63,212 bases of DNA, filler included, from 12 parts of 12 records of this genome joined end to end with filler, not necessarily neighbours in it; one strand, 5' to 3'. Counted from the first letter of the whole stretch, positions 1,301 to 54,508 are shown. Program-made: numbers and translations. Notes: generated from the sequence alone by a model not told the origin.

Positions 1301-1380
1301 AATTGTCTTCTTTTAATATTCCCAACGCCCCCAAAGAAATCCCAGTCTTTGCAAGAGGAAGAATCGATACACAATAAGGA

Positions 1381-2019
1381 TTATTCACCAGAAGCCGCAG
1401 TCTCTTCTGCTTTATCTGTTCCTTCTTCTGTGCCATCTTCTTCTGTTTTTTCTTCCATCTTCGTTTTTCGTGAGGCAAATACTGCAAATAAGGAGGTATC
1501 TTTAGCATTTAAGATTTTATGATCTTTATTTTCTAAAACAATGTCGCTCACATAAAGTCTTTGCCCAATATCAAGCGCACTGGTGTCAATAATTATTTCT
1601 TCTAAAATATCTTCTGCATTTACTTCAAGCAAGAGATCGCGAAAATAAATTTCAAATCTTCCCCCACGAAGAACGCCTTTAGGACTTCCTTCAAAGCGAA
1701 GAGGAATACGCATTTTCACTGATTCTCCCTTTTCCAAAAGCAAAAAATCCATATGCCTAACATAACGATCTTTTGTCAAAGACATATCATAACTTTTAAT
1801 GAAAGCTTTATATTCTTTTCCCTCATATTTTAATGTCCACACGGTGTTTGATTTTAAATTATCAAATTGCAAATCAAACTCCTTTTTATCGACAAAAATG
1901 GGAATACTTCCTTTACGATTGTACATTACCGCGGGAATGCGACCTTCTTTTCGGCCCTTCTTCCCAAGATTACGACCTTTTTCCCGTCTCTTTACACTTA
2001 ATACAAAATTGCTATCCAT
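1381..2019 (-). CDS. rplY: 50S ribosomal protein L25 / general stress protein Ctc (long form)
   Basis: GRIPAVMY, RHMDF, GSPKGVLRGG motifs and acidic tail. True start is ATG 2019 with GGAG RBS; the longer ORF call runs into the tRNA. Confidence 0.93.
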   Translation of the reverse strand: MDSNFVLSVKRREKGRNLGKKGRKEGRIPAVMYNRKGSIPIFVDKKEFDLQFDNLKSNTVWTLKYEGKEYKAFIKSYDMSLTKDRYVRHMDFLLLEKGESVKMRIPLRFEGSPKGVLRGGRFEIYFRDLLLEVNAEDILEEIIIDTSALDIGQRLYVSDIVLENKDHKILNAKDTSLFAVFASRKTKMEEKTEEDGTEEGTDKAEETAASGE

Positions 2020-2051
2020 AAAAAATCTCCGAAAAATATCACTAATAATTA

Positions 2052-2124
2052 CTGGGGCGGTAGGATTCGAACCTACGCATGACGAGACCAAAACCCGTTG
2101 CCTTACCAACTTGGCTACGCCCCA
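2052..2124 (-). tRNA. tRNA-Gln(UUG), CCA not encoded
   Basis: TGGGGCG/CGCCCCA acceptor stem, D arm GCCAAGTTGGTAAGGC, anticodon stem ACGGG/CTCGT with TTG, T arm GTAGGTTCGAATCCTAC. Confidence 0.96.
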
Positions 2125-2194
2125 TAGAAAAAAATTTAATACTGATTATTGTAGCATTTATTTGAAAAAAATAGTAGAATATTTACAATATTTT

Positions 2195-3337
2195 ATGAAT
2201 TCCTTAATTTTTCTTTCCCTTCTTATTCTTGTTTTTGCATTTATTATTTTCTTCCTCCTTCTAAAATCGGAAATTAAAAGCAAAATCCAAGATTTTTCTC
2301 GAAATTCTGAAAAAGAATTAGGAGAGAACTTCTCGAAATTAGAAAAAGATATGCAAGAAAATTATCAGGACATATATAAAGATCTGAGCTCTTTTAAAGA
2401 GAGTATTCACGGCTTTAGAGAAAGCATTAAAGTTTTCTTTGGAAAGGAATTTAATGAATTACGAGAGAAGATTGGCAAAGATTTTGATGCCATTAAAAAG
2501 GAATCTCGAGGAACCTTGGACGAGGTCTTTGAAAAGACCAAAGAAAGTTATGCTATTCTCATTGAACGCATTGCTAAAATAGATGAATTTCAAAAAAATA
2601 TTCACAAATTTTCCCAAGAAGTAATCTCTTTACAAGACATTTTAAAAAATGTTAAAACCCGAGGAAACCTTGGAGAAGTTCAACTTTACAAACTTCTAGA
2701 ATCCATTTTTGGTCCCCGAAATAAGAAAATCTACGAGCTTCAATATAAAGTGAAAGAAGGTGCCATTATTGACGCAGCGATTTTCTTTCCGCCTCCGTTA
2801 AATACGGTGGGAATTGACGCCAAATTTCCCCTAGATCCTTACAAGAGAATTACAGAAAAAGGAGTTCCTGCAAAGGAAAAAGAAGAATATACCAAGCAAT
2901 TTGTCAGGGATATTAAAAACAATATGAAATCTCTTCACGAAAAATATATGCAAGGAGAAGAGGCCCTATCTCAAATTGTCATGTTCATCCCTTCTGAATC
3001 CATTTTTTCCTTCCTCGGTGCAGAATTTCCTCAATTAATTGAAGAAGGAATAAGAAAGCGCATATGGCCCTGTTCTCCTTCTACTTTTGGTGTTATTTTA
3101 CAAAATCTCTACCTAAGTCATGTCACTATCCGCCAAGGAGAACAAGTGAGATTAATGCAAAAACATCTCTTTGCTTTAGGAGAGGATTTTAAAAGACACG
3201 AAGAACGTTGGGAACGCCTTAGTAGACACATTAGTTCGGCGCAAAAAGATGTCGAAGACATTAATATTTCTGCAAAAAAAATTAGAAATAGATTTCAAAC
3301 AATTTCAAAAGTGGAATTGGAAGCAAAAGAAGATTAA
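2195..3337 (+). CDS. rmuC: DNA recombination protein RmuC
   Basis: N-terminal TM helix, coiled coil, KTRGNLGEVQL, IDAKFP, MFIPSE, SPST motifs; likely start MNSLIF at 2195. Confidence 0.92.
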   Translation: MNSLIFLSLLILVFAFIIFFLLLKSEIKSKIQDFSRNSEKELGENFSKLEKDMQENYQDIYKDLSSFKESIHGFRESIKVFFGKEFNELREKIGKDFDAIKKESRGTLDEVFEKTKESYAILIERIAKIDEFQKNIHKFSQEVISLQDILKNVKTRGNLGEVQLYKLLESIFGPRNKKIYELQYKVKEGAIIDAAIFFPPPLNTVGIDAKFPLDPYKRITEKGVPAKEKEEYTKQFVRDIKNNMKSLHEKYMQGEEALSQIVMFIPSESIFSFLGAEFPQLIEEGIRKRIWPCSPSTFGVILQNLYLSHVTIRQGEQVRLMQKHLFALGEDFKRHEERWERLSRHISSAQKDVEDINISAKKIRNRFQTISKVELEAKED

Positions 3338-4175: not shown

Positions 4176-4275
4176 NNNNNNNNNNNNNNNNNNNNNNNNN
4201 NNNNNNNNNNNNNNNNNNNTTAATTAATTAANNNNNNNNNNNNNNNNNNNNNNNNNNNNNNNNNNNNNNNNNNNN
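4176..4275. other. Artificial contig spacer (N-run, TTAATTAATTAA, N-run). Identical spacers at 10183-10282, 23900-23999, 33110-33209, 38162-38261, 40578-40677, 44927-45026, 51121-51220, 54509-54608, 58607-58706, 61039-61138
   Basis: Eleven identical 100-nt blocks carrying a six-frame stop linker; composition and gene content change across them. Confidence 0.99.
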
Positions 4276-10182: not shown

Positions 10183-10885
10183 NNNNNNNNNNNNNNNNNN
10201 NNNNNNNNNNNNNNNNNNNNNNNNNNTTAATTAATTAANNNNNNNNNNNNNNNNNNNNNNNNNNNNNNNNNNNNNNNNNNNNTAGGTAGGTAGTACCTAC
10301 TAGGTACTTATTTAATAAGTCTTATTATGTATTAATAATAAACGTGTAGTACGTTACTATGTACTATGTACTGGCTAATAAGTATGTAGAAAATTTGTAC
10401 TAGAAATGTAATTGGGGCTCTACCTAAGGATGCGATGAGTCATCACTGTGAGTTACTAATTAGTGTACCTTAATTGTTGTCTAATCATTAGACTCTAATG
10501 AAATCTGTTGTAACTGTTTCATTAGGTATGAAATCTGACTTGTTGAATTTGTTAGATATGTACTAATGAATTTGTTTTCAGCAATAAATTACATATATGT
10601 ATTGAACTTATTGTTATGAAATCATGATATTCTAGGAATGGAACAGTTTTTTGACGAAAAGTAAAATGATATGGTACAACTGAACATTTTGCCGTTACGA
10701 CCGAAATCACGCTTACAAAATATTTTCATGTTTTGAATTTTATGGTTTATGAAGTTGCCCTATGTTAGATAGAAATCTAAATGCTGACTTAATGAATAAA
10801 TGGTTACTGAATAACAAATAGTCTTTGTTGTTGTTGTTATTAATGCTACTAATTCAAGATTAATTAATACTGAAGTTTCAAGATA

Positions 10886-23851: not shown

Positions 23852-24949
23852 CATATACATTAAATACTAACACAGTGCAACAAAATTTTGGGACCCAAAN
23901 NNNNNNNNNNNNNNNNNNNNNNNNNNNNNNNNNNNNNNNNNNNTTAATTAATTAANNNNNNNNNNNNNNNNNNNNNNNNNNNNNNNNNNNNNNNNNNNNC
24001 CGATAATAAAGGTCGTACCTCAACAGGGTGACATCTTTTAGATGAAGTATACTTTTTTAGTTAGTTGAGTTAATGCAAAATGTTTTTTAAATCGTTAATG
24101 CAAAAGTTCTTGAATTATTCTAAAACTAACTGTTTGGCTTTAACTAGAGTTAATAGGGTTAATATTAACTTGGTTAAACAAAGGACTTTTAAAAATCCTT
24201 TAAAAAAGTCTTTTCTTGGCCTTTGTAACTTTATTCATAAGAATAAAATAAGAACTTTTGACTTTTCATTAAGCTCTAAGAGTAGAGAGAATACTACACT
24301 TTTTTCTGACATCTGTAAGAGATGTATTGTCAATCATGACTTTGACTGTATATGTATGTATAATAGCTTTGCACAGGCTAATACAGTTAACAACGTAGTT
24401 TTTATGTACCTGCCTGAGTATGTACAGACCAAGGTATATGTAGACCCTTCTAGGTGTGATTATGGAAATCGAGATCTTGTAAGTACATGTACTCTTCAAC
24501 TTCTCTTAATACATACATACTTGGTGAATGATACACTATTATGTACATACAGTGTATTTGGTAAATTATCTTTTGTGGTATGCTCTACACGTAAAGAACA
24601 GTTTTTATGTACTGTATGTAGTGGGTACATGTATTCAGTAGTACGTATTTGTGAACTAGATAGAGTACATATAGATTTTTGGCAATGTACGGTATGTATG
24701 TACTGCGCATTTTGCGACTTGTTCGGTAATTCATGTAAAATTGATAAAATATAGTCACTCGTTTGTATTAGGCTCTATGAGTTCGAACTACTCAAGGTAG
24801 TAATTAACAAAAGTTACCCCAACATGTATACGTGGGTAGTTATTTTGAATAAACCGTGTAACTGTAGAAATTTGGCACGTACTGTATATGTACGCAGTAA
24901 TGCACTTGTATTAGGTACGGTTCGTTTGGTCTGTGACATCTACTGGGTG

Positions 24950-26072
24950 ATGGAAGAGATTTGTAATGAAATATTGAAGAAACATCTACTCAAGAACAAC
25001 TACAATCTTGGTCAGTTAGCTGAAGTTGATTTGTCGAAAGTTCTAATGAATCTTCGTCATCGTTATTGTGATATGATTGATGCCAAATCCTCAGAAAATT
25101 GGGAATTGTATTCTGATCATAAATTGGAACTGACGTTAGAGCTACTTGGCTGGTTTGAGAACGTACATGGCTTTCGTTTCAAAGAGCATAAATTCTATAA
25201 TGAAGTGAAATTTTCGAGTGCAACAATTATCGGACAGCAGAAGGTTTCCGAAATGAGTGAAGACGAACTCCGTAAATTGATGGATTTTGTTAGACCAGAG
25301 TATCTAGAAATGACCGCCTTGGAGACTGAAGTTGACGCAGATAAATTGAAGATGAGATCGAAATTTCTGACGAAACTTAATCTTGGTTTCGATAAAATTG
25401 AAATCTATCGCAAAAACGCGTACAGAGAATTTTGCTCCAATGTAATCTCGGTGGTTGGTGCTTACTTACAGCTGAATACTGAAACGATTTCCGCTGATGA
25501 ATTGGTTACTTCAGATTCAGCGAACGAATTTCATGAGAAAATTACAGATTCGGCAATCAATGACAAACTTGGGATGACGTTACAAATTGCGTCTTGGTAC
25601 TTTTTGAAGTATGGATAGTATGCTCTTGAACAAGAGTTCACAAAGTATATCAAAGATATGTATGAGGAGATCCATGGTACTTCAATGTCAGAGAAAAAAG
25701 TTGGATACATAGTCAATAAGTACCGTACAGAGTACATCAAGATGTGTGCATCTGATCCTGCAGCAAAAGCAAGTGAAGAGTTTCTGAAGAATTTTGGTGA
25801 AATTTTTGGAGCTGTTGATGGACTAGAATGGTATGTCTTACCTAAAATATGTACGTTAATAGATGGCATTATGCTCCTACTTGATCGGAATCACGTGATG
25901 TTTAAAATCAAGTTTTTTCAAACTTGTTTTTTCAATTATGTATTTAAGAATGACAGGTACTTTAGACCGTCTTATTATATCTATTCGTCGCTAATAACAC
26001 TATTATTTCAGGTCGGAAGAAGAGATGTTGAATGTTTCCAAGACGGATATGACTGGAGGAATGTCGATTTAG
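24950..26072 (+). CDS. Predicted spliced cargo gene 1 (24950-25830, 26012-26072), two copies of an unknown helical repeat; internal TAG at 25616 in this copy
   Basis: Acceptor TGTATTAG before the ATG, donor GTATGT at 25831, acceptor TTATTTCAG at 26011; spliced end WSEEEMLNVSKTDMTGGMSI*. Confidence 0.55.
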
Positions 26073-26299
26073 CGGCTAAATTAGTGCACTTGCAACTACA
26101 ATTTGGTGGTGGTTATTGCTTATTAGGTAATTCGTTCTTTAAATCCTTAAACTGCAATAAAACTCTATTTTTTCAGGTCTTTTCGTTTGTTTTATTATAT
26201 ATTTCGTATTTATGGCAGTTTCCCTTTGATGTTTGGCTTTGCAACGACTTATTACTTAAGGTAATCTTCTCATTGAGTTATTATTGTACATTTAGAGAA

Positions 26300-27459
26300 A
26301 TGAACACGGGTAAAATTCTTGCTGCTGGCTTAGCCTTTCATAAAGCTAAGGAATGGTGTGCTAGAGTTTTAAGATGCTATAAACTGTACGACGATGCGCT
26401 AGCTGGTGCCAAAATGAAGAGAATTGATACTACACCTTTCATCGCCAAGTACACAGACGAATTGGACTTTATTGTAGATGCCAGAGAGGATGAAAAAGAT
26501 GAAACATTCTTCATTAACTGCGCAACCATCCAGATGAGCTTAATCACGTGGTTTGAGAGCACATATGGACCAAAATTGCGAGAAGAGAACTTCCAAATGC
26601 TGGTTTTAAAGTCCTTCAAGAGAAAAAGTGAAAACAACGAAGATCGAGTCTCTCAAATGCCTGACATGATTCTAGAAAAGATACGTCCTAAATTCCATCA
26701 ATGGAAATGTGATGATGTGGGTGATATAGAAAAATGGATTGACAACTTTGTTGAAGAATGTATGACCGAAAAGGATGATAATAATACGAGGTATAGATTG
26801 TTTTCGTATCATAGTGTTTGTATTACACTTTTTAGACCGTTCATGCAACTTTCATGGGAAGAGAAGGAAGAGAAATTAGGACGCTTCGTTATCACGACGC
26901 TTACTAAATACCTAACGCAAAATGGTCGTCAATTAGGAGCTATTGATAAAGATGATATGAAATTTATTGTGGCCAAATTGATGGGTCAATATGTCAAAGT
27001 GATTAGCAACAATCAACAAGTAGATGGTCGTTGGTCTGCTGGTTTGTACAATGAGCTCAAAATGGTGGTATATTGTTGGTACGAGACTACTGATGGTTTT
27101 TATGAATATGACCTGATCGTCAATGACTTCATTTTTAATGCGTACAGAAACATGGTAGGCCTAGCTTCTTCAATGGCACCGAAACCAGAGATGATTTCGA
27201 AAATTCGTGACTATTGTCGTCTCGAATTAAACAGGTGTGATCTGATGCTGAATAAACACATTCCCCTTCACCTTGAGAAGGAGAATCCCATGGTTATTCA
27301 ATTCAAAGCGAAAATGCGAGAATTTTTGATAAAAGAGGGTGTTATTATCATTGTAAAGCCTGGGTATGTACTGTATGTACGTAACCGTAAATTTATTTAT
27401 ATTGTTGCATTTTTAGAAAGTATTCGTTGGAAGTTTGCTGTCCCAACGGTGGATTGTGA
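26300..27459 (+). CDS. Predicted spliced cargo gene 2 (26300-26790, 26836-27363, 27417-27459), paralog of cargo gene 1
   Basis: Acceptor CATTTAG 4 nt before the ATG; 45-nt in-frame intron; 53-nt GTATGT..TTTTTAG intron gives GKYSLEVCCPNGGL*. Confidence 0.6.
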
Positions 27460-27811
27460 AGTCTATCCCGTGACAATTATTTCAAACTGGTTCATTTATC
27501 TTTATAATCTTTGTCAAAATTTTTGTGTTTTTTACTTTGATATTCAATTTTTGAATGCAATTGAGGCGTCTAAATTTTATTTAGTATGCCTAGCTTATAA
27601 CTATTCGTTATGCTTTTTTGTACTTCTTAGAGAACCATTTTTTTGGTTTCTCATTAAGAAGTTAAGCAAATTTTTTACAAATTTATTTGGTATTTTGATA
27701 ATTTTTCACAATAGGGGTCGCCAACTATTGTTGTTCCTTATCTGCTTCGAATTAAGTTTATTACGTACTACTTTGGTACAAATACAAATGTTTTTTGAAT
27801 TGAATTTTCAG

Positions 27812-29279
27812 TCGGCAGTAAAAAGAAAACGTGGTTCTTCAGAATCTAGCGATATGGTGGATAAGGACGAAGAACTGGAACTTGAAATAAGTACCGAAAT
27901 GGCCAAGAACAACCAAATGGATCAAACTTCTGGTGATGAAAAAGCTGGTGTGCAATTCGAGAAAGGTAAACCGATAAAAGTACACGACCTTCTATGTTTT
28001 TTCCAAGACAACATTGATTGGTTTAAATGTCTCATGCAAAGATCTGGAATAACAAGTATGTTGCGTACCATGAACATTCCGCGTCCTCTTCATGAATATG
28101 ACGTATCTGACTTGAAAAGAATGTTCAAGACCAATACCATTTATGGTGATATTAGAATAAGGCTGGATAGCAACAAGACTGAACTTACCGAATCAGATAC
28201 TGCTGAATACTTCAAAACTGGTTTGACGAGTAAAGAAGATTTGGATAAGAAAGCAGATTGGCTTAAATCTTTCTTGCTCCCGTATGTTCCACCTAACAAC
28301 ACAGAAAACTGGATCGAGGTTAGAGCTAGAAAATGGGCAAGTGCAGAAGAAGCCTTTGGCTGCCAACCTTTTGAGATAATGTATGAAGATACGTCTGCTA
28401 AGCACCTTAAAGAAGAAGGTCTGAAAAAACAACCACCGGATGATGGACGGAAAAAATTTCGTACCGAAGTCATGCTTAACATGACTGTTCAATCAGAAGT
28501 GGAATTTGTCATTATTTTTGATGTATGGATGCAGTCAAAGAAGACTACTTCTTTTTTTGATGATAATCAAGCAGTTGCGCTAATTTGAGACGCGATTTCA
28601 TGGCTATCATTGGAAACGCTGTTTAATCACATGCACATTTCGAACAATGCCATCCATAGTGTCGTTATTGCAGCTCCAATTACTTTAAAATTGGGTATAA
28701 TTACTTTTATTGTGTTAATTAATTATAATACAATATTCATTAACATTATAGGAAGTGATCAGGATCGTAATTTGATTGAGAAGAAATTGACCCTAGCCAT
28801 TGACAACTTCCTTCGTCTACACCTGGTAAATCAGTTTATTCTGTATATTATCCCAGGTTGGGAAATTGCCAAAAATCCGATTGCTAATGATTTTGCCCAG
28901 GCCGTGTCACTCTGGAAAGACATCATCAAGAAATCTCAGTACAGCCAGAAAATTCGCTTAATTTCATTGGATAGCTCAAAGCTAGCTTTGATTGACAAAA
29001 AACCATGGGAGAAAATGATCTACTACGAAGATAGGATGGGGGGTTTTAGAGTTTTTGCCCAATGTCCAGATAATGGCAATGTGTTCAGAGAACTGAATGA
29101 TTTACTCTGGAAGACGATAGCCAATCTAGCGTATCTTACGGAAAATCATGATCAGCTGGATAAATTTTTGGGAGCCAAGATCGAAAGTAGGTATTTTTTA
29201 TTTAAATTTGTAAAAAAGACGAATTTTAATTCATCTATTTTTAGAAGCCTACAAGAGAAGACGCGGTCAAAAGTATTAA
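27812..29279 (+). CDS. Predicted spliced cargo gene 3 (introns 27966-28007, 28695-28751, 29187-29244); first internal ATG at 27854; internal TGA at 28586 in this copy
   Basis: Acceptor AATTTTCAG at 27811; 42- and 57-nt in-frame introns; 58-nt GTAGGT..TTTTTAG intron gives EKAYKRRRGQKY*. Confidence 0.6.
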
Positions 29280-29769
29280 CCTCCAACAATGCTTCTCCTC
29301 AACTAGAGCCTTTTATTTGCCATTTTCTCCATTATGTTTACTTTATTATATGTGTAACAGTTGAATTAAATTTTGAAAAATTCTTTATTAACAAATTTTT
29401 GAAAATTCTCTTTAACTTATTGTCTGTAGCGTTACCTTCTTTTAAGTTGTACTGTTCAATGTTTATTAATCAATTACTCTTACAGAATGTGTTGTTAGGC
29501 ATTATGATAGTATTAACGATTTTAATGTACATCAATTTATTGATATGTGTTTGTGTCGATGATAAATTTAACAATAAAGTACAACAGTGTGGTAAAAATG
29601 ACTCTAGCTCTTCTTTGATTAGAGTTAATCCAATTCAGCATGCACAACAAAATCCCAGTAACATATCCAATACTGGACAGCTGGTAACAAGAGGAAAAGG
29701 CCTTAAGATGAAATTTAATATGAGCCAACTGTTTGAAGTAAATGGAAAAAAGGTGCGTATTTTTAAAAT

Positions 29770-30365
29770 GTTTATGTACATCAATCTGCGTGGGTTACAA
29801 GGGAAACTAGCCACTTTCTTGAGGGATGCGTTGATTGATAATCAATGTATGAGTCTTACTGAGACCTGGTGGGATGATACACTACCCTTTTCTGACAACA
29901 GATTTTATGCCCATTTTACCAATAGGGGTGATTTTCATGGAGGAGCTGCACTCCTATCTCTTTCTCGCCTTGGAATTCAGAATGTATTGTACGAAACAAA
30001 AATATTTGAAATTCAAGCAAATACAATAGAACTTGATAAGTTTATTGTTACTACAATTTATAGTCGTCCTGAAACTAGTATAGTGTTAATTTACAACGCT
30101 ATTTCATCGCACCTCTTGGCGACAGAAGGGATTGATAAGGCCCATGTTTTTGTTGGTGATTTAAATTTATGTTATTACACTGACAAAAAAGCCGACATTT
30201 TGAAACTGATGTTTGAAACTAACAACTACGTAAATCATACAGCTAGGGTAACACGTATAAATGGGCATAGGGGTATTGACTGGCTTTTGATTAAAGAAAG
30301 TCCTGATTTTAAGGTAATGAACATTGAACTGGACCCTACTATTTATTCTGATCATTACACCTATA
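29770..30365 (+). CDS. Apurinic/apyrimidinic-like (APE) endonuclease domain of the element
   Basis: YINLRGL, LTETW, GGAAL, TIYSRP, VGDLN, TR...IDWLL, SDHY. Confidence 0.92.
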
Positions 30366-31096
30366 GCTTTAATTTTCAGGTAGTTGCTAAACCTCAAAAT
30401 ATTCAGAGCAAACGAATTTGGCTTTGGAACAATGTTAATTTCGATCTCTTTACAGATTGTTGGAGATGGTTGTATTTCCAAAGGATTAGAGATTTGGCTG
30501 AATCCAATGAATGTCCAGATTGGGACCTTTTTGAAGACAATCTTTCGGTAGATTTTAAAAATTGTTTAATTAAATCTTCATTGCATCAGGCAGCTAGCGA
30601 ACTTGTACCTACCAAGACTTGCACGAACAATGACAAATTTGCTAATATCTTCCAATTTAGTAAGGATCCCATAATTAAAGAGAATAAAACTCATCAAAAG
30701 CAGTTGAAAAGGGAACTGAAAATTGCCAATCAAGTGAATGACAGCAATGAGATTGAGAGAATCAAAAAGAATCTTAAGACTGCTGCTGCTGAACTTTGGG
30801 CATGGAAAAATTTGGTAAGATTTATTAAACTCAAAGAATTACGTAACACGAACAGGAAGTTCTTTTATAAAATTATAAATGATTTATCTTTTCAGACTAA
30901 AAAGAAAAAGAATGACATTTCATGCATCAAGGTAGATGGTGAAGTTATTCAAGACGCAGAGGAAATAGTGCACAACTTCAACAGATTTTTTTCTATGGCA
31001 GCTATAAAAACTTTAGCTAAGAATGGGTGGAGTCAAGAAATTATGGATGACAATTTTGGTAAAATTCCTTTCACTTGTGATGATGTTTGATTCTGT

Positions 31097-32791
31097 TTGC
31101 CTTCTGTATTGAAGAAATTACAATCACATAGAGCTGTGCCTGATATGGAATTTCCGCGTGAGGTATGGAAAGAGATAATTCTGACTAATGTCCAATTTTT
31201 TACACACTATTTTGATACAATTATTCGAACTTGCCAAGTACCGCAAGAATGGCATTCCTACGAAGTAAAACCCCTGTTTAAAAGAGGAGATCGCATGGAA
31301 TGTAACAATTATCATCCAATAGCGTTATTAAATCCTCTCTGTCTAATTTTCGAACAAATTGTACTAGATCACCTTATGAAAACTAATTGTTTAAACGTTG
31401 CAAACAATCAATACGCGTATAAGTGTGGGACAGGATGTAAAGATGCTCTTTGGAGTTTCTCCTCCATGATGGCCATTGCTAGGAAGAATAAAAAATTTTT
31501 CGGTGCTATTTCCTTTGATGCCTCTAAAGCATTTGATACTGTACAACCGAATACGCTGATGTCTATCTTAAGGGACAATGGTCTATCAAACCACATGACT
31601 GTTTTACTATTCAACTATTTAGCCATGAAAAGAATGCATATATTTATTGATGGAACAGCTTCTGACGAGGAAGATATAGTGGTGGTATGCCAACAAGGGG
31701 CCAAGCTTGGCCCCAAGTTATTTACTATTTATTTAAATAGTGTATGTCATTTAGGGCAAAATTGCTCCGTTTGTCTAGGACCCAAATTTGAAGCTTGTCA
31801 GTGTGTTCATTTAAATGATTACGCAGACGATATTGTCATCTTTGCTACAGGTGATAGTCCTGAAGAGTTGATTGGTAAATTAGAGAAGCTGGCTTTCAGA
31901 ATTATCTCTGAACTAGATAGTTTGAAAATTGTACTGAATATGTCAAATACTGAATTTTTTGTATGTCACCCCAAGGATGCTGTTCAAAGTGGTAAATTCA
32001 GGGTAAAGGTTAAGGATAATTTTATTAATAATTCTGAACAAATAAAAATTTTAGAAGCATTGTTTTCTTCGACGTCTAATGAGGAAGTGGTGTTAAATCA
32101 ACTGAAAAGACAACTTGGACCGTACTCCTTAATGGCATCATCCAACAAAATGTTCTTGTCACTCCATGAAATGAAGGTTATTTTTAACTCATATGCCTTA
32201 CCAATATTTGGTAATGGATCATTGATGTGGAACGCAGCGATTGTGAAAAAGATGGCCATTATTTTTAATTCAAAACTCAAAGAGATGATGTCTCTTTCTA
32301 CATTTGTCAGCTCGACTGCAAGTCGCTGTATCATGGATATTGACGCTTTAGGTAATTGGCTTAATAAGAATAACTCTAAGTGGATACTTAGGGGGGTAGT
32401 CAATGTGGTTGACTCCCCCATTATAAACAAACTTAGACTTATTTTATTAAATTGTAGAACTTGGCAAATTCCCCCCTTCTTTCCTGACCCCCAGCACCCC
32501 CTGGAACTATCCAGAGTGTTTCTTAACACTCATTTACAACGAACACCACCATTCAATGGCTGGCAAGAACTACTACAGTCCTCAGACCTCAAACTGAGAC
32601 AGCAAACGCTGACGAGTCTTTTGAATCAATTGGACAATGTTTGCAAGCAATCACGAAAGAATCAATGCGAACAATTTAAACAAATTACTGGCCTGAAATT
32701 AGACACAGTAAAATGGATCATAACGGAAATTCCACGAGCTGTACGTTACTTTCAATGGGACGTTAAAGTCTTACAGAAACGTAATTGTTAA
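31097..32791 (+). CDS. Non-LTR reverse transcriptase domain and C-terminal region
   Basis: PLFKRGD, NYHPIALL, NQYAY, DASKAFDTV, QGAKLGPKLF, YADD. Confidence 0.95.
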   Translation: MPSVLKKLQSHRAVPDMEFPREVWKEIILTNVQFFTHYFDTIIRTCQVPQEWHSYEVKPLFKRGDRMECNNYHPIALLNPLCLIFEQIVLDHLMKTNCLNVANNQYAYKCGTGCKDALWSFSSMMAIARKNKKFFGAISFDASKAFDTVQPNTLMSILRDNGLSNHMTVLLFNYLAMKRMHIFIDGTASDEEDIVVVCQQGAKLGPKLFTIYLNSVCHLGQNCSVCLGPKFEACQCVHLNDYADDIVIFATGDSPEELIGKLEKLAFRIISELDSLKIVLNMSNTEFFVCHPKDAVQSGKFRVKVKDNFINNSEQIKILEALFSSTSNEEVVLNQLKRQLGPYSLMASSNKMFLSLHEMKVIFNSYALPIFGNGSLMWNAAIVKKMAIIFNSKLKEMMSLSTFVSSTASRCIMDIDALGNWLNKNNSKWILRGVVNVVDSPIINKLRLILLNCRTWQIPPFFPDPQHPLELSRVFLNTHLQRTPPFNGWQELLQSSDLKLRQQTLTSLLNQLDNVCKQSRKNQCEQFKQITGLKLDTVKWIITEIPRAVRYFQWDVKVLQKRNC

Positions 32792-33055
32792 AATTTCAAC
32801 AATAGCTCTCAAGTTGGTTACAGAGTCTGGTCCAGAAAATGGAAACAATCTATTCAGGCTAATTAGTTAATTTGTCAATTGATTAGTTTATTATTCTACA
32901 TGAATTTTTTCCGACTTTATGTCGTGTTCATGATATACCTTTGTCACTGTCATACGCGTAAACTGTAGTAGTTATTTGTAGTTTCTGTTGTTTATTGTAA
33001 TTTTTATTATAATGCCATTTTTCTATTGTGTACGTATGATTACTGTTATGGTGAG

Positions 33056-33081
33056 AATAAAGGAATAGAATAGAATAGAAT
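33056..33081 (+). repeat. 3' terminus of the LINE: AATAAA followed by (GAATA)n tail
   Basis: AATAAAGGAATAGAATAGAATAGAAT; short tandem-repeat tails are typical of CR1/L2-group elements. Confidence 0.75.
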
Positions 33082-33209
33082 TTGAAATCTCTGATAACGA
33101 TTTAGTAAANNNNNNNNNNNNNNNNNNNNNNNNNNNNNNNNNNNNNNNNNNNNTTAATTAATTAANNNNNNNNNNNNNNNNNNNNNNNNNNNNNNNNNNN
33201 NNNNNNNNN

Positions 33210-36200
33210 GTCGGCAGGTAGACAGCAGAAAGCAACTCCCTGTTATCTCCCTGTTGTCATAATTGCAACATGACTTATTCTATCAAAAGCCTTTGCGTAG
33301 TCCATGTAGACAACAAAGACATATTTGTTGTCTCTATTGTCCACTCTATGCAAAAGGTCATGACAGAAGTCATATAATGCAATTGTGGTTGAAGATTCCT
33401 CTCTAAAAGTAATTGAGTAATTTTTCTGCAGGAATGGTCATTTCAATTTCGTGTAGGAAAACTTTCTCTACTATTTTACTAAGTATGGATAGAAGAGTAA
33501 TCGGTCTGTACTCTTCCACCTTACGTTAGAAGCCGTTTTTGGGTATGGGATGTATTATCCCAATCTTCCATATGGGGGGAAATTTGTTTGAACAGAGTAT
33601 GTTTTTGCACAAAGTTTGGATGGGTAGTGCAAGCTTGTATTTAAGTACTTTGAGCAGCCTACCCGATATATTATCTATACCTGGAGCACCATTCTTCTGC
33701 TTTGTTATGAAAGATATTATTCTTGCTTGATGTGTAAAAGGAGTGTGATCCTTTACATGTTCGTATTTGGAATATACCATTCTAACAAATTCTGGAGTAA
33801 TATCTTCCTCCTTGTAGACGTCATGGAATTGTGAACTTAACCCTTTCGCCTTTTGCTTGTCTGTGGTTAGATGTTCACCATTGTACAGCATAACAGGTGG
33901 TAACTTTGTGCTTTTCTGGCTGTTTAAAAACTTGTATATTGATCTCAAATCTTTGCCTGCCATCGATAGACGTTTATTAGCTTTATATAAATCATTTTGA
34001 AGGCTGGCCAATAAGCGCTCCTGCAATTGAACAACATTTGTTTTGTTATGTTTTAAACTGTTAGACAATTTTATTATTAAATTAGCCGATCCTGGTGATA
34101 CCCAATTTGAATATTCCCTCCTTTTTCTAGTCTTTGGTCTTTTCAAGTTTTTTAAACCAACCACCAATTCCTTTGAAAAATTTAGAACATCAAGTTTCAC
34201 ATCTTCAGAGTTGCATTCCAGAAAATTTACACTTTCAAACGCTTTCAGTATGTCAGCATCTTCAAAGTAATTCAAGTTGTATTCCCCTATTTTTCGAAAC
34301 AATTTTAAGTATTGCATATAATATGGTATACTACGTTTTAAAAACTCCTGCTGTTCAAGCCCAGCTTTTTCGTCAGCAGTCATATTTATCACTGGCTGAT
34401 TTACTTGAAAATTAGATTCATGCGTATATACTGGGTGATCAGACAGTAGTTTGTCCTCAGAAAGACTATAATAGAATTTCTCAGCTTCAACAGCATGTGT
34501 ACATTTTGTACTTGAAGTTTAAAAGTTTTGCATAATACACATTTTTTGCTCATCGAAATCTATTAATAGATTTTCAAAATCGCCAATGTCTAGGCATTCA
34601 TCTAACAATGCTTCTTCTTCTTCAACATTTATAATTCTCGTTTTCTTATTTTTTTCGTTTTACCTCAATGCATTTTGCATTGCTCCTATTTATATCCCCC
34701 ATTAAAATTAAATTGTTGTAGCTCTGCTGTTTTAAGGTGGTAAGTAAAATTCCTAAGTCTTTCTAAGGAAACCTATAATCGCTTCCATAAGGTGCATTAT
34801 AGGCTAAAATAATTATGTAATTTATACCTCCAATGTCCAGTTTGACCACTAGTATGTTTTGTCTAGCATTTTCGCTCAGAGATTTCGGTAGTTCAAGTGG
34901 TTCTGCTTTTAAATTTTCATCAACTAACAATGCCAAACCACCATGTTTAGATACCCCATTTTGCTGATAAGGTCGACCATTTGATATAATATTATAGTTC
35001 ATTATAGTCAGTTGGCTAAAATCTTCGTTGCTAAACCAAGTTTCTATCAGGGCATAAATGCTATGGCATGTGCTTAGGATTAGCATTTCCAAGGCTTGTC
35101 TTCGTGAGAGTAATAATAAGCTTCTGCAGTTGAGCAGCAATGTACATAACATTACCTTCTTTTTATTTACATTTACATTCATGGGTGAAATTTGGGTTTT
35201 TCTCTTATTTCTACATGTACAAGGAGAGTTTTTTGTGCTACCATATAGTCAGAAATGCCTGCCATGGCCAGCACCTCTGGAATTTCCATAACCTCTTTCA
35301 CGGTTCCAACCACCATCTCTATCGCGATTAAAGCCACCTCTGTAGAAACCTCTATTTCCACCTCTTCCTCTATATCCTCTGGAATAACCTCTGCTGCCAG
35401 CATTGAAGTCTCTGTTGAATCTTTGCCTAGGCTGCTCTCTGTCATCTCGGTATTGGTTTCTGTCATTGCGATTTCCATCACCATATCTCACATTTTCTTC
35501 ATCCCTTCCATATGCACCACCAGGCATTTGGTATTGTTCTCTCATATTATCAATGGTATTTTTCTGCACTGATCTTTGATGTCCATGTTTTAGATTCTGC
35601 ATTTCAGTTAATACAGATGGCGTTGGAGCTTTTTTGTTTCTATCCTTCTGCTCTCTGTAAGCGTTGACTAAATCTCTAAACATCAATTCAGTATCATCAT
35701 CAAATCTGGTAGACAAAGAAGAGCTACGGCTAGAAGCTTCATTGTTATGTTTTCCCTCATTCTTTCCAGGTTTACTAACTAGCACTTCATCATCCCACTG
35801 TTCCCAAGGCCTGCTAGTTTTGTCCTCTTTTGATAATCGCCTGTGATTATTGCCGTAATCTTTACTGTGCTCTTTTGAATCTCTATCTCGCTTGCTTTCT
35901 CTTTGCGTTCGATTATTATTATGATGGTCGCCATCTTTTCTGCTATATCTTCTTGGCGACGCACAATGCTTCTTACTAGATGTCTCCCTGTCTTTATGAT
36001 CCATACTCCTTCTTCTTTTTGATCCTTCAGCCGCAACTTTTATGTTTTTGATGTTCAGTTTCACTGTTTCTGTAGGTCTCTTTCATTGTTTTCTGGAAAT
36101 CTGCATGTTACAATCTTCAGTATCACTGCCAAGCTCGCTGATGGTCTCAAAAGAGGCATTAGGATCGTTGAATAAATCATTCAAACTGAGGTTTGTATCA

Positions 36201-37102
36201 CTTTTCTGCAACTCACTTTTGTCCACCTGTGAATGTGTCTCCTTCTTTTTTCCCCCTTCCAGCATTGTACTTTGCAACATTTGCTTCTCCATTTCTACTT
36301 CCTCCTTCTCCACCTGTTCTTTAATAAACTGAGAAGCAGTTGTTGTAGCCATTTGAGATCCATTTGATGATGAAAAGGATTGAGATTCTAATGCAAATGT
36401 GGTCATCCTGGCTTGTTTAGGTACTGCACCAGTAAACATATATGCAAACTGTTTGCCATTGCTTGTAAGTAGACTGTTTACTACTTTAGCTTCAGCTACA
36501 TTCACACTATCAGGGAGAGTTCCTTGCCTTCGTCCATGCTGAGCCATCATTCTTTTAATTGGTGGTACATATTTTTCGATGTAAACGCCAGATACATGAT
36601 TTAATTTGTCTGGAGTAAGCAATGTTTCCATTAGTAGTGGGTCCTTGATTTGAAAATGCACATGCCTGAATGCTTTTTGCTGGGCAGATGGTTTACCTTT
36701 TCTTCTTGCAAAATGCAGTTGTGATTGCCAATTCGTAATACCTGTAAATTTACGAAGATAGAAGCTGACTTTTGCTCTAAGTTTCTTCTTCGGTTCTTTG
36801 AAATCCACCTCTTCTAGAATTCCTCGCATGAAAAGTTCGTCAAGGTACACTCTATCTTCCATGTCAGCCATTGAACAAGTTTGGGCTCCTTGTATAGCAT
36901 TGAAATGTTGTTCATTTTCAGCTATCTTCATGGCAGTTGCTGTGATATTTTCACTATTTGCTTCAACCTGTGTGCGTAAGGCTTCTGTCTTCTCAAGAAT
37001 GGGCTATGTAATCGCCTTCATTTGGTCCAGGCTTTCCTTGACTCCATCTTGCATTAAACTTTCAATTTTATCCCAAGTAGCATCCGTAATATTTTCAGCC
37101 AT
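33210..37102 (-). mobile_element. Second, decayed non-LTR retrotransposon (ORF1 + APE + partial RT), truncated by the contig end
   Basis: APE: LNCRSL, LIETW, HGGLAL, LMGD, SDH. RT: APGIDNI, WKIGIIHPIPK, YRPITLL, DYAKAFDRI. Several stops and frameshifts between 34763 and 33210. Confidence 0.9.
35249..37102 (-). pseudogene. ORF1 of the second LINE: coiled coil, L1-ORF1/RRM-like domain, Ser-rich linker and RGG-rich tail; premature stops at 37006 (TAG) and 36085 (TGA)
   Basis: ATG 37102 (MAENITD) and ORFs 36083-36931 and 35249-36064 share one frame; MEDR..DELFMRGI.E and ARRKGK..RHVHFQI resemble the ORF1 RNA-binding domain. Confidence 0.7.
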
Positions 37103-39747: not shown

Positions 39748-39967
39748 AGCATATAACTGGCAGCAGTGCTGGCGGTATGATGGCGACATCTAACTGCTGG
39801 TGGTACCATAGCTGCATCTAACTCCTCGCAGTATGATAATGGTACCTAATTCCTGGTGGCATGATAGCCGCAGCTAACCACTTGTGGCATGATAGTGGCA
39901 TCTAACTGCTGGCAGTATGATAGCGGCATCTAACTGCTGGTGGTATGATAGCGGTAATAAAATGCTG
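39748..39967. repeat. ~27-bp minisatellite (GCATCTAACTGCTGGTGGTATGATAGCG-like)
   Basis: About 8 imperfect tandem units visible. Confidence 0.8.
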
Positions 39968-40677
39968 GTAGTAGATGTGGTTGCTATATATAGTATGTAC
40001 GTGCATCCCCTATAGCAATCGGCAACACCAAGCACCAATTTTACAGCTTTTTCCATTCAAGATCTGCACAAACATGCATGTAAAACAGTATTAAAAGCAG
40101 GAAATATATTTCCAGCAGCAAATTGCTATAAACTTTTTCATTGGTGATCTTAGGAATCTTTGGAATATGGAAGTTGCAAATGCATAGGCAATATTCAAAT
40201 GTCAACAAAATGAAAAGCAGTTATTTAACACAAACTGGTGTTCCATAACAAATTTCCATAGGTTGATATTACTTACATAATAAAGGGGTAGAGTTACTAC
40301 TAGTCACGATGTCAAAGTGACATTGTGTGAGTTAACTAGCCATATGCTTGAAAAAGTGGTAGCATGAGTAACTCATGATGAGTCTAGTGGTATAAGAAAT
40401 GAAAGTCATGCAATTATTACTCATCTCATAGGCCCTCAATTAAGATGCATTAGAATATATTATTAGTTACTACATAATAGGCATGCAGCTAAAGTACCTG
40501 AGGTTATCCATTTAGTATACTCTATAGAGTATATTTTACCTTTGAGAAAATGTACAGTGAGACACATAAGTTGTGTCNNNNNNNNNNNNNNNNNNNNNNN
40601 NNNNNNNNNNNNNNNNNNNNNTTAATTAATTAANNNNNNNNNNNNNNNNNNNNNNNNNNNNNNNNNNNNNNNNNNNN

Positions 40678-52642: not shown

Positions 52643-54508
52643 ATGGTAAGACTTTGCTTTATTACATGTAATTGTTTGAATGTTTTGAAGTTTATTTACA
52701 TTTATTAAATATATAGCCTGCAAGTGCAGTAAGTTCAATACCAAGCAGCACTGGGTCTGGATCCAGAAAGTCAAAAGGTTTGAAATATCACACCATCTCT
52801 CGCCATTCTGGTGCTGATGAAAACCTTTTTGGTGAACCCAATCGTGTCAAGCAAATGACTGGCAGCAAAAGTGCCGATGCTCAAGCTGACAACATTAGAG
52901 TACAAATACATTCTCCACTAGAAGAACAAGCTGCTCATAGAGTAAAAACTAAAAAGGCTGAAACAAAGAACTCTCCCGAGACTATTCGAGTTATAACAAA
53001 AGATCTCATCAGAAATTTAATGTATTAATAAGCTTTTCGCAAGTATTCATCGCTCATTTATGTAATAACTTATGTTTTTAGAGTTCCAAGAGAAGATCCT
53101 AGTGGAAATACCATAGTTTTATCTCCGTATGAATATTCAAGACTATTACATGCTGCAGTATTCAAGTCTAAGGAAGAACGACAACTAGAAAGTAATGAAA
53201 TGAAAAAAACAAAGGAACAGCTAATGGATGACAGTTCAAATAGAAAGACTGAAATGCAGAAGTTGGATTTGGAAAGACGCAGAAATGATAAGTTGTCAGA
53301 TTTGGAGGAAGAAGCAAAGCAAAAGGCACAATCTCTCTTGGAAAGAGCAAATGAGTTGAGGCAAGAACAAGAAGACGAAGTTAAACACTTAAATGAGGTA
53401 CCAGATACTTATCAAATTTAACGACAAAGGGCCAAATTGCGTACTATTTTTAGTTGATATTAAATGCTAAATGTCATGCCATTCGTGATGCCCAACTTCT
53501 GGAAAAGAGGGAAATTGTTGAGGAACTCGTTGACGACGAGCGCAGATTAGATCGAATGATGGAGATAGATCGTGTTAATAAAATCAAAATGCAAGAAGAA
53601 ATCGAGAGGAAACGAAAAGAAGAAATCCTTGAAGCAAGACGAGTTATGGAACAACAAATTCAGGAAAGAGAGGAGGAAATGTTACTGGAGAAGGAACGCA
53701 GAGAGCAAGAAGGGTATGAACAACTAAGAAGAATAGAACTATTACAAGAAGAGGATTGGGAAGAAATGCAAGAAAAAAAGAAGCAACAGGGTGAGATGCG
53801 TGCAGAACTTGATGTTGCTAACAAGAAGCTTTTGGAAAGAAGGGAGATACTGAAGGAACAGGAGAAACTTGAGGATCTGAAGGTTATGGAATTCCAGCGA
53901 AAGAAAGCCGAAAGGGAACAAGAGTATGAAGAAGAAATGGAAAGAAAACGAGTTGAAAAAGAAAAGGAAGTGGCGCGCTTAAGAGCTCTCCAGGAGCGTG
54001 CCCGAGATTATCAGGCAGAACAAGACGCTTTACGCGCAAAACGCGCCCAAGAAGAATATGAGCGAAAGTGGCGACAGAAGGAACTAGAAGCAGCTAGAAA
54101 AAAGAAAGAAGTGGAAGCAGATTTGACCAGAGCTAGGCAAGAACAACAAGCAATTAAGGAACGAGTTCTTGCTATTCAAGCCAAGCAAGATAGAGCGGAA
54201 TTTCAAAAAGTTTTGCAGTATGTCTGTTTACTTTATTTACTCAATATTTCAATATAAAATCTATAATGTAAATTTATTGTGGAATATATTTAGAGCTCAA
54301 ATTGAAAATGCAGAAAAATTGAGACAACTTGAAGAAGAATTGGCTTTTAGAAATGCACAATATTCAGATTCTTTGAGGAAACAGATTACAGAAAAGGAAA
54401 AGGACCGAATTAAGGACAGAAACCAAACCTTTGAGGATGGTATTAAAATGGAAGAAGAAGCCAGGCTTAGGCGTCAGAAATTAGCAGAAGTTAAGCAAAA
54501 GAAAATAA
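52643..54508 (+). CDS. CFAP45: Cilia- and flagella-associated protein 45 (CCDC19), 3'-truncated; first coding exon is the ATG alone
   Basis: YHTISRHSGADENLFG, ITKDLIRNL, ILNAKCHAIRDAQ, DALRAKRAQEEYER, long coiled coil. Confidence 0.92.

Follow-up and report, generated by a model that had tools for sequence, protein, structure and literature searches.

The region analysed here covers the 5′ two-thirds of a lineage-specific APE-type non-LTR retrotransposon (LINE) from an AT-rich animal, present as a single copy that is young and slightly damaged, and its sequence suggests that splicing may decide which of the element proteins get made. Five segments with GT..AG ends (181, 45, 53, 57 and 58 nt) look like genuine introns, a conclusion supported in silico, and each of modules 1, 2 and 3 closes with a candidate whose length is not a multiple of three (non-3n). 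The logic resembles that of BARE1, known in LTR elements, and is predicted here three times in a LINE; we give this reading a little less than an even chance of being right.

The window, that is the whole stretch of DNA analysed (63,212 nt), holds 12 contigs joined by N44-TTAATTAATTAA-N44 linkers. The linkers at 23900-23999 and 33110-33209 flank a separate contig (24000-33109, + strand, 9110 nt) that is made up of the retrotransposon itself. A single long reading frame of 2905 codons (24074-32791, + strand, terminal TAA at 32789) contains, in this order, a leader, module 1, a spacer, module 2, a spacer, module 3, a spacer, the endonuclease and the reverse transcriptase (RT) (Table 1). In this copy the frame has four internal stops (TAG 24752, TAG 25616, TGA 28586 and TGA 31088), and therefore the copy cannot make the full product. 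The other two frames carry 227 and 354 stops, counted over 24074-33500, and stops return directly 3′ of the RT stop codon; decoding of stops as sense is rejected in view of the abundance of stops in these two frames and in the 3′ UTR. A (GAATA)3.8 tract at 33063-33081 lies 28 nt short of the contig end. No direct or inverted repeats were found in the element contig, which indicates that there are no LTRs, and in blastn and tblastn searches of the window for further copies the element matched only itself.

Table 1. Features of the element contig, with positions counted from the first letter of the window.
Feature	Position	Strand	Description
Leader	24074-24949	+	open in the long frame, 1 stop vs 23.3 expected
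Module 1	24950-25830	+	orphan repeat of ~150 aa, predicted to be all-helical, in two copies, 24950-25399 and 25400-25828
Intron candidate, 181 nt	25831-26011	+	supported; phase 2, non-3n; GTATGT..TTTCAG
Short terminal exon of module 1	26012-26072	+	shifted frame, if the 181-nt candidate is removed
Spacer 1	26073-26299	+	T-rich, non-coding-like; 0 stops vs 4.5 expected in the long frame
Module 2	26300-27363	+	two more copies of the module 1 repeat, 26300-26790 and 26836-27363
Intron candidate, 45 nt	26791-26835	+	supported; phase 2, 3n; GTATAG..TTTTAG
Intron candidate, 53 nt	27364-27416	+	supported; phase 2, non-3n; GTATGT..TTTTAG
Spacer 2	27460-27853	+	T-rich; 0 stops vs 8.2 expected in the long frame
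Module 3	27854-29186	+	orphan protein; no similarity to the repeats of modules 1 and 2
Intron candidate, 42 nt	27966-28007	+	not supported; donor GTAAAC, weak ..CCAAG acceptor
Intron candidate, 57 nt	28695-28751	+	supported; phase 1, 3n; GTATAA..TTATAG
Intron candidate, 58 nt	29187-29244	+	supported; phase 1, non-3n; GTAGGT..TTTTAG
Spacer 3	29280-29710	+	T-rich; 0 stops vs 9.9 expected in the long frame
APE-type (EEP) endonuclease	29711-30400	+	colinear BLASTP match with EEP+RT protein P0109, E 1e-5
RT, non-LTR type	31091-32788	+	RVT_1, E 5.1e-18, 66 bits (cut-off 29.6)
3′ UTR	32792-33109	+	318 nt; 7, 6 and 12 stops in the three frames

The alignment with P0109 covers the positions of the N, E, GDxN, D and SDH catalytic motifs of the endonuclease, which on its own is too divergent for a match in Pfam or PDB sequence searches. 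For the RT, the best PDB sequence matches are chains of R2 and of LINE-1 ORF2p (E 5e-10 to 4e-6), and 108 + 60 distant homologues were found at ≤35% identity, many of them also with EEP domains; no relatives were found in metagenome contigs. The sole giant protein among the RT matches, P0113 (2598 aa), is uninformative, coming from an unrelated element that contains low-complexity sequence. With both an RT and an EEP endonuclease the element is an APE-type LINE; gag-protease-integrase domains are absent according to Pfam, and it is not a member of the BARE1/copia LTR class, which it could at most resemble in its mode of expression.

Sequence comparison and structure prediction indicate that modules 1 and 2 are real proteins made of four copies of one repeat. 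The four repeats are mutually similar (Smith-Waterman z 7.6-10.1), and AlphaFold2 run on their four-way alignment reached a pLDDT of 90; from the single sequence of module 2 it gave a pLDDT of 40, which is unusable. Word-indexed search yielded no relatives of module 2, and neither did phmmer among 1.84 billion representatives, the ESM Atlas or metagenome contigs; the first two of these searches also turned up no protein derived from a transcript. Pfam has no family for modules 1-3 or the leader, the repeat profile matched nothing among PDB sequences and Pfam, and the predicted repeat fold has no match in the PDB (best Foldseek E 2.7, TM ≤0.31). The element provides a new, confidently folded all-helical repeat domain without relatives in these searches. 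None of the recognisable ORF1 types (CCHC knuckle, RRM/coiled-coil, esterase, PHD) was found, which is not required for LINE membership, and both the CX2CX4HX4C knuckle and the 2A NPG(P) skipping motif are absent from the element.

Approximately 2.3 kb of non-coding-like sequence is kept open in the long frame. The frame runs through intron- and spacer-like sequence: these stretches contain 1 in-frame stop, compared to 55.8 expected from dinucleotide shuffles. The spacers and the five short GT..AG segments are stop-free in the long frame only. In the non-coding-like segments T is near-uniform by codon position (0.39-0.51), and G at position 1 amounts to 0.14-0.17, compared to 0.25-0.30 in exons. 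In composition (T.45-.46, A.27-.30) they match 12 putative host introns (T.45, A.28), a set with one verified intron and 11 that were predicted by bridging ORFs, a method that favours stop-bearing introns. Continuity of a Pfam profile was used to check one host intron, which measures 76 nt and has GTATGT..TTTAG ends. Even without splicing, selection for a stop-free frame across intron-like composition needs explaining. The leader is rich in GTACAT/GTATGT-type motifs and has six strong donor-like hexamers.

Six introns had been proposed in this region, and on recomputation their coordinates, lengths (181, 45, 53, 42, 57 and 58 nt), GT..AG ends, donors and resulting C-termini came out as annotated. 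A count of stops confirmed that all six are stop-free in the unspliced frame. We compared the codon log-odds score of each candidate to those of all windows of the same length in the module exons. Five candidates fall below all exon windows, with mean log-odds of -0.17 for the 181-nt segment (0 of 708 windows as low), -0.68 for the 45-nt segment (0/962), -0.45 for the 53-nt segment (0/944), -0.28 for the 57-nt segment (0/938) and -0.18 for the 58-nt segment (0/938). The 42-nt candidate is unsupported because its composition is exon-like (log-odds 0.38, the 51st percentile of exon windows) and its acceptor is weak. Four of the five supported candidates have a host-like size of 45-58 nt. The 45-nt candidate sits exactly between the two repeats of module 2, and three of the four repeats are each followed by a phase-2 candidate, at the equivalent point of the alignment.

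Removal of the 181-, 53- and 58-nt segments in silico gives proteins ending in ..GGMSI* (TAG stop at 26070-26072), ..PNGGL* (stop at 27457-27459) and ..RRRGQKY* (stop at 29277-29279), with tails of 19, 13 and 10 codons past the junction, respectively. The earlier claim that removal would end the protein within 12-20 codons describes no more than chance predicts for an off-frame read: the tails lie within the 10-90% range of any such read here (medians of 8 and 5 codons), and therefore nothing marks the shifted-frame tails as selected. The proposal that the terminal exons are dual-coding reduces to a trivial result of the open frame.

Removal of the 45- and 57-nt introns would preserve the frame. 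With module ends set by composition, both internal candidates are 3n and all three terminal ones non-3n, a pattern for which simple arithmetic gives a chance P of (1/3)^2 x (2/3)^3 = 0.033. The annotated rule, that internal introns are 3n and last ones non-3n, had included the unsupported 42-nt candidate, and its definition of “last” is partly circular because removing a non-3n intron by itself ends the frame. The in-frame alternative donors that had been pointed out nearby do exist: the one at 27339 would give a 78-nt intron and the one at 29191, overlapping the 58-nt candidate, a 54-nt intron.

In our preferred reading, which we hold with not quite even confidence, these five segments are real spliceosomal introns that are kept translatable, and translation would end once a terminal non-3n intron has been removed. 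They would be kept translatable because only unspliced RNA brings introns into new copies, and this RNA would also have to be read through to the endonuclease-RT, given that LINE proteins work preferentially on their own encoding RNA. Removing any non-3n intron (181, 53 or 58 nt) at a module end would cause a frameshift and termination, and the spliced RNAs would yield accessory proteins that lack the RT and outnumber the full polyprotein. After splicing at a non-3n intron an RNA would not encode the RT and therefore would not be copied, so that the introns stay in the lineage. The products are more likely to form a nested series with a common N-terminus than to be three separately initiated proteins.

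A bolder version, which we find somewhat doubtful, holds that the strategy of copia and BARE1 arose independently in a LINE, where three consecutive frame-shifting introns serve as valves on a 2900-codon frame. Much module 1 would be made, less module 2, still less module 3, and the endonuclease-RT on rare occasions. Inheritance of the introns by every new copy would be guaranteed, as only fully unspliced RNA would encode the RT in cis. If true, this would be the first non-LTR retrotransposon known to use splicing to set its protein ratios as well as the retention of its introns.

Against the proposal of translatable introns stand the approximately 75-140 hydrophobic residues that translated spacers would add between the modules of long products, the multi-kb 3′ UTRs that spliced RNAs would carry, chance donor-acceptor pairs of similar strength in the RT core, and the four in-frame stops of this copy.

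LINEs are thought to be without functional introns because their replication goes through RNA. They are also thought to control the ORF1:ORF2 ratio at translation. If the proposal is true, intron retention would be the replicative state and splicing the expression switch, which bears on how retroelements keep introns and on how cis-preference shapes element architecture. There is a likeness to exitrons, alternatively spliced introns within coding exons of host genes that are stop-free and coding when retained: 3n exitrons preserve the frame and others truncate the product. Exitrons are, however, described for host genes and not as a retrotransposon switch.

The closest parallels are found in LTR elements. 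According to the report on BARE1, a barley element of the Copia superfamily, a 104-nt alternative intron lies at the end of gag; its splicing, demonstrated by RT-PCR, leads to a frameshift and a stop few codons past Gag, so that the spliced RNA, although of nearly full length, makes Gag alone, the unspliced RNA encodes everything, and the authors emphasise that replication of spliced RNA must be avoided (PMC3735527). Like BARE1, whose small U-rich non-3n intron lies inside the ORF, the present element is a single-ORF retroelement, its ORF is open through the candidate introns, and in silico removal leaves only the upstream protein encoded. BARE1 differs in having LTRs, Gag, protease and integrase and one such intron, whereas the present element is a LINE with orphan proteins, about 1 kb of spacers that can be translated, and five introns predicted from sequence, three frame-shifting ones in series and two of 3n length. 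In Arabidopsis EVD (Ty1/Copia) a subgenomic Gag RNA arises by alternative splicing coupled to premature termination (PMC5580714), and Drosophila copia makes a Gag-only RNA by splicing of a single-ORF element (PMC3735527). In both, structural proteins outnumber catalytic ones because the RNA of a single-ORF element is spliced, as would be the case here; however, these are LTR elements in which the intron removes part or all of pol, and a series of modules or translatable spacers is not described in the available text of these reports.

LINE-1 and the jockey-clade element Hebe of Adineta vaga (PMC2861651) share with the present element an APE endonuclease and RT in one ORF, upstream accessory coding and an inferred dependence on full-length RNA. 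In contrast, they have one stop-closed ORF1 (with zinc knuckles in Hebe) and are not known to carry introns by design, whereas the present element has no CCHC knuckle or 2A, three orphan modules and one frame from leader to RT. In LINE-1, which gives rise to spliced copies known as SpIREs, splicing of the full-length mRNA is reportedly a side reaction (PMC5860796). We found no description of a non-LTR element with translatable or frame-shifting introns in the open-access literature searched.

The main rival reading, which we consider unlikely although deserving of some weight, is that the element encodes a polyprotein with junk linkers that is never functionally spliced. The linkers would be constrained only against stops, their T-richness would reflect drift as in unconstrained transcribed DNA, and the GT..AG ends would be relics or chance. 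Every supported intron is found at a boundary between domains or modules, which is where a linker would be expected, and three of them abut long spacers with only islands of 35-61 nt between. T-richness need not mean an intron, given that the 3′ UTR of the element is T-rich as well (T.41, A.31). Read in the long frame, the island 3′ of the 181-nt segment is open and scores as strongly coding-like (log-odds 0.78), the tails that follow “splicing” look like chance, and in the RT core both strong donors pair by chance with a TTTYAG acceptor (31742-31899 and 31961-32054). However, strong donors (GTA[AT]GT or GTAGGT) occur eight times in 7839 nt, and three of them lie at transitions from coding to T-rich sequence, of which there are approximately five (binomial P 1.3e-4). 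T-runs followed by YAG stand exactly where coding-like sequence restarts; TTT[CT]AG occurs at 11 sites in 24950-32788, four of which are intron ends and two of which end or lie in spacers. Four segments have host-like minimal intron lengths (45-58 nt), never-spliced linkers would leave the 3n/non-3n pattern unexplained, and relic signals should decay within the time needed to purge about 56 stops.

It is quite improbable that each module has a separate mRNA, operon-like or from multiple promoters, with the spacers as true UTRs or intergenic regions. Modules 2 and 3 and the endonuclease-RT would each acquire a 5′ end, through trans-splicing of a spliced leader to the strong acceptors that end at 26176 and 26295 (both in spacer 1) and 27811 (in spacer 2, where the sequence turns coding-like again), or from internal promoters. 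Every module does begin with an ATG after a T-rich stretch, and strong acceptors without a nearby donor lie just 5′ of the start codons of modules 2 and 3: a TTTAG ends 4 nt 5′ of ATG 26300, and a TTTTCAG 42 nt 5′ of ATG 27854. Separate mRNAs would not, however, need an open frame through about 1 kb of spacers, and a search of the window (63 kb, 12 unlinked contigs) revealed neither a spliced-leader RNA gene nor any other RNA family. AATAAA is at chance level, with 10 occurrences in the contig compared to 10.4 expected and none in the spacer after module 2, so the internal polyadenylation signals annotated at ~26156 and ~29573 occur at no more than chance frequency. This alternative is the nearest to the first-pass idea of discrete cargo genes, which lacks support. 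Nested, N-terminally shared products are at least as likely as discrete genes because the leader is open, there is no excess of poly(A) signals, and eight frame-0 ATGs (the first at 24080 and 24098), in addition to 19 out-of-frame ones, precede the proposed ATG 24950. No separate start for modules 2 and 3 can be argued.

Very improbable, in our estimate, is a conventional multi-exon gene in which long in-frame introns remove whole spacers to give a compact polyprotein, with short forms from alternative 3′ sites. The spacers are intron-like in composition, and in-frame options with acceptable acceptors exist at 27364-27849 (486 nt) and 29191-29622 (432 nt); these serve the junctions of module 2 to module 3 and of module 3 to the endonuclease. 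Between modules 1 and 2, however, joining donor 25831 to any of the four good acceptors ends translation, at 26011, 26126 and 26176 by frameshift or stop and in the 465-nt 3n option by a TGA at the junction, so that the compact polyprotein is feasible at two of three junctions. Roughly one acceptor in three would be in frame by chance, and the stop-free state of the removed sequence would be unexplained.

Scarcely credible, finally, is an artefact of chimeric or collapsed assembly, or a set of ordinary host genes upstream of a LINE insertion: the contig is a short one of a fragmented draft and ends at the element edges, as repeats do, but a LINE and unrelated host genes would not have a reading frame in common with so few stops across UTR- and intron-like DNA, and this frame begins less than 80 nt from the contig start and closes at the RT stop codon.

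Judged by its sequence, the contig at 24000-33109 is one copy of a non-LTR retrotransposon. Its 3′ part matches the reverse transcriptase (RT) profile RVT_1 (E 5.1e-18), with R2 and LINE-1 ORF2p as the best matches in a search of PDB sequences, and an APE-type endonuclease lies upstream of the RT; its alignment with a database protein carrying EEP and RT domains is colinear and takes in the catalytic motifs (E 1e-5). The RT relatives are all distant, at 35% identity or less. One frame of 2905 codons runs from the leader to the RT with four internal stops (TAG at 24752 and 25616, TGA at 28586 and 31088), and the two alternative frames hold 227 and 354. Because there are four nonsense codons and no frameshifts, we regard the copy as young but not intact. 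The shared frame also makes an assembly chimera very unlikely.

The long frame passes through sequence with little resemblance to coding DNA. The stretches between the modules are T-rich (T 0.44-0.53) and lack codon periodicity, with T at 0.39-0.51 at each of the three codon positions and G at codon position 1 at 0.14-0.17, compared with 0.25-0.30 in exons. Across the leader, the six candidate introns and the three spacers we observed a single long-frame stop, where dinucleotide-preserving shuffles give 55.8; the other frames of the same sequence contain 58 and 97. For the leader taken separately the long-frame values are 1 and 23.3. Stop avoidance is limited to this one frame and ends at the RT stop codon, directly after which the 318-nt 3′ UTR has 7, 6 and 12 stops per frame. 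A LINE with a single frame kept open across intron-like and UTR-like sequence is thus real, and the statistics for it are overwhelming.

The modules upstream of the endonuclease represent real proteins. Modules 1 and 2 are built from four copies of a single repeat of about 150 residues, alignable end to end with invariant W and G, and repeat 1 aligns locally with the other three at z = 7.6, 10.1 and 8.2 (300 shuffles each). AlphaFold2 run on the 4-row alignment predicts an all-helical fold (mean pLDDT 90), for which Foldseek found no similar PDB fold (best E 2.7). Searches for sequence relatives drew a blank in Pfam, PDB sequences, 1.84 billion representatives, the ESM Atlas and metagenome contigs. 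Module 3 shows no kinship to these repeats, and no family was found for it in Pfam.

Features of the retrotransposon copy and of the other contigs
Feature	Position	Strand	Detail
Consecutive stop-to-stop ORFs, one frame	24074-24751, 24755-25615, 25619-28585, 28589-31087, 31091-32788	+
Leader motif region	24300-24720
Module 1	24950-25830
Candidate intron	25831-26011		181 nt
GT..AG segment, spacer 1	26127-26176		50 nt, GTAATT..TTTCAG
GT..AG segment, spacer 1	26261-26295		35 nt, GTAATC..TTTAG
Module 2	26300-27363
Candidate intron	26791-26835		45 nt
Candidate intron	27364-27416		53 nt
Module 3	27854-29186
Candidate intron, dropped	27966-28007		42 nt, GTAAAC..CCAAG
Candidate intron	28695-28751		57 nt
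Candidate intron	29187-29244		58 nt
Probable second LINE	33529-37003	-
Tandem array	39769-39997		28-nt unit
Host intron, TPH-domain gene	54218-54293		76 nt, GTATGT..TTTAG
RmuC ORF	1793-3334	+	intron-less
PP-loop/TilS-like ORF	47-1312	-	intron-less
tRNA	2052-2124	-

Are the candidates introns? The coordinates, lengths, GT..AG ends and donors listed for all six in the first-pass annotation are correct. We scored them by codon log-odds, training the coding model on the endonuclease-RT alone and using the three spacers for the non-coding model. The 181-, 45-, 53-, 57- and 58-nt candidates score below every module-exon window of the same length (0/708, 0/962, 0/944, 0/938 and 0/938 as low), so that five of the six are supported. 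The 42-nt candidate was dropped because its log-odds of 0.38, at the 51st percentile of exon windows, is exon-like and its splice pair is weak. In base composition the five supported introns (T.45, A.30) and the spacers (T.46, A.27) match 12 putative host introns (T.45, A.28). Stops in all three frames occur in 9 of these 12, of which one is verified and 11 are ORF-bridging predictions from a method biased toward stop-containing introns. The verified one lies in a gene whose TPH Pfam profile continues across both exons, and it shows that the host employs short U-rich introns with GTATGT donors.

The main rival holds that nothing is spliced and that a giant polyprotein is made in which the segments serve as unconstrained linkers, which would explain both the open frame and the positions of the segments at boundaries. 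It leaves unexplained the length pattern, to which we return below, and the placement of donors and acceptors. Strong donors (GTA[AT]GT or GTAGGT) number just 8 in the 7839 nt after the leader, and three of them fall exactly where coding sequence gives way to T-rich sequence (binomial P 1.3e-4, taking ±10 nt around each of five such transitions). Among the 11 TTT[CT]AG sites after the leader, four end supported introns, one closes spacer 2 (27811) and another is inside spacer 1 (26176). Splice-motif pairs alone prove nothing, since in the RT core both strong donors have a TTTYAG 94-158 nt downstream and one such pair spans the active-site region; the weight of the motifs is in their coincidence with composition breaks. 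All three introns in modules 1 and 2 are in phase 2, and each comes after a different one of the four repeats at a matching position of the alignment; both introns of module 3 are in phase 1. This pattern fits duplicated exon-plus-intron units and domain-plus-linker units equally well.

The orphan acceptors ending at 26176, 26295 and 27811 would be accounted for by separate mRNAs, made by trans-splicing or from internal promoters, but the open frame in the spacers would not. Two junctions offer long in-frame introns that would take out the spacers, at 27364-27849 and 29191-29622; none is available between modules 1 and 2. Of the two further GT..AG segments in spacer 1, the 35-nt one ends 4 nt 5′ of the module 2 ATG. 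The 181- and 50-nt segments add up to 231, a multiple of three, yet the exon between them has a shifted-frame stop. The leader carries a region dense in GTACATGTA/GTATGTAC-type motifs, with a Cys-rich conceptual peptide containing one near-miss knuckle (CX2CX3HX3C), and six strong donor-like hexamers in its 876 nt. The motif region could be an internal promoter, decoy donors or a degenerate fourth module.

It had been proposed that internal introns have lengths divisible by three (3n) and that the last intron of each cargo gene is non-3n and creates its stop. In silico, removal of the 181-, 53- and 58-nt candidates does yield the predicted C-termini and places stops at 26070, 27457 and 29277, and the in-frame alternative donors at 27339 and 29191 are present. 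That the proteins end within 12-20 codons is uninformative: the post-junction tails of 19, 13 and 10 codons lie between the 10th and 90th percentiles for any off-frame read of the element (median lengths 8 and 5 codons). The rule for the last intron is in part circular, since taking out a non-3n intron at any position ends the frame; what stands is that a non-3n intron lies at the end of each compositionally defined module and 3n introns lie inside. For five introns of random length, 3n in 2/2 within-module and non-3n in 3/3 module-end introns has P = (1/3)^2 x (2/3)^3 = 0.033. AATAAA is not enriched, with 10 occurrences against 10.4 expected and none in spacer 2. The leader is itself open, with first frame-0 ATGs at 24080 and 24098, and 27 ATGs come before the one at 24950 proposed to start module 1. 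Translation therefore more plausibly begins at the 5′ end of the element than anew at each of three cargo genes. With five of six introns behind it and modest statistics of its own, the arrangement is plausible at the level of sequence.

How might splicing operate in such an element? To carry introns, a LINE copy would have to derive from an unspliced template RNA. LINE proteins favor the RNA they came from, as established for LINE-1, so the unspliced RNA would have to be translated through to the RT, and this need could account for the purge of stops. If the RNA is spliced at all, removal of a 3n intron would leave the frame unharmed, and removal of a terminal non-3n intron would stop translation after that module. 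The outcome would be more accessory protein than endonuclease-RT, most simply as a nested series. RNA from which a non-3n intron has been removed would have lost the coding sequence for the RT from its frame and would not be copied, which would preserve the introns.

By analogy, the arrangement has precedent in another class of retroelement. In BARE1, an LTR retrotransposon, a 104-nt U-rich alternative intron inside the single ORF shifts the frame and brings in a stop three codons past Gag (PMC3735527); this is the device proposed here, demonstrated there. Related forms operate in copia and EVD (PMC5580714). The rotifer LINE Hebe has an ORF1 with a zinc knuckle, and its description does not mention introns. 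Searches of the open-access literature gave no non-LTR element with translatable or frame-shifting introns.

All 11 N runs in the window are N44-TTAATTAATTAA-N44 six-frame-stop linkers (including 4176-4275, 10183-10282, 23900-23999 and 33110-33209); the window is therefore 12 unlinked contigs, and neighbors in it are not genomic neighbors. The intron candidates all lie within one contig of 9110 nt. GC is 0.25-0.37 across the window, and genes of animal type with short introns lie on other contigs (fucosyltransferase, P-type ATPase, TPH-domain protein, Storkhead-box protein). The contig at 1-4175 looks bacterial and may be a symbiont, a contaminant or a transferred gene. It has an RmuC and a PP-loop/TilS-like ORF with a tRNA reported between them, and the closest relatives found for RmuC reach just 39-41% identity (Mycoplasmatota, Muribaculaceae and Tenericutes records).

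Another locus, on the minus strand, probably represents a second LINE, of a different kind and in a more decayed state. An ORF1-like protein, coiled and RG-rich, and an endonuclease-like start share one frame with single stops between them, followed by frameshifts; unlike the element described here, it has no stop-free spacers. Its endonuclease weakly matches P0109, a database protein with EEP and RT domains (E 0.03), and a Pfam search of the locus gave zero matches. A separate small contig holds a tandem array, in which six overlapping 89-nt register copies share 62-75% identity.
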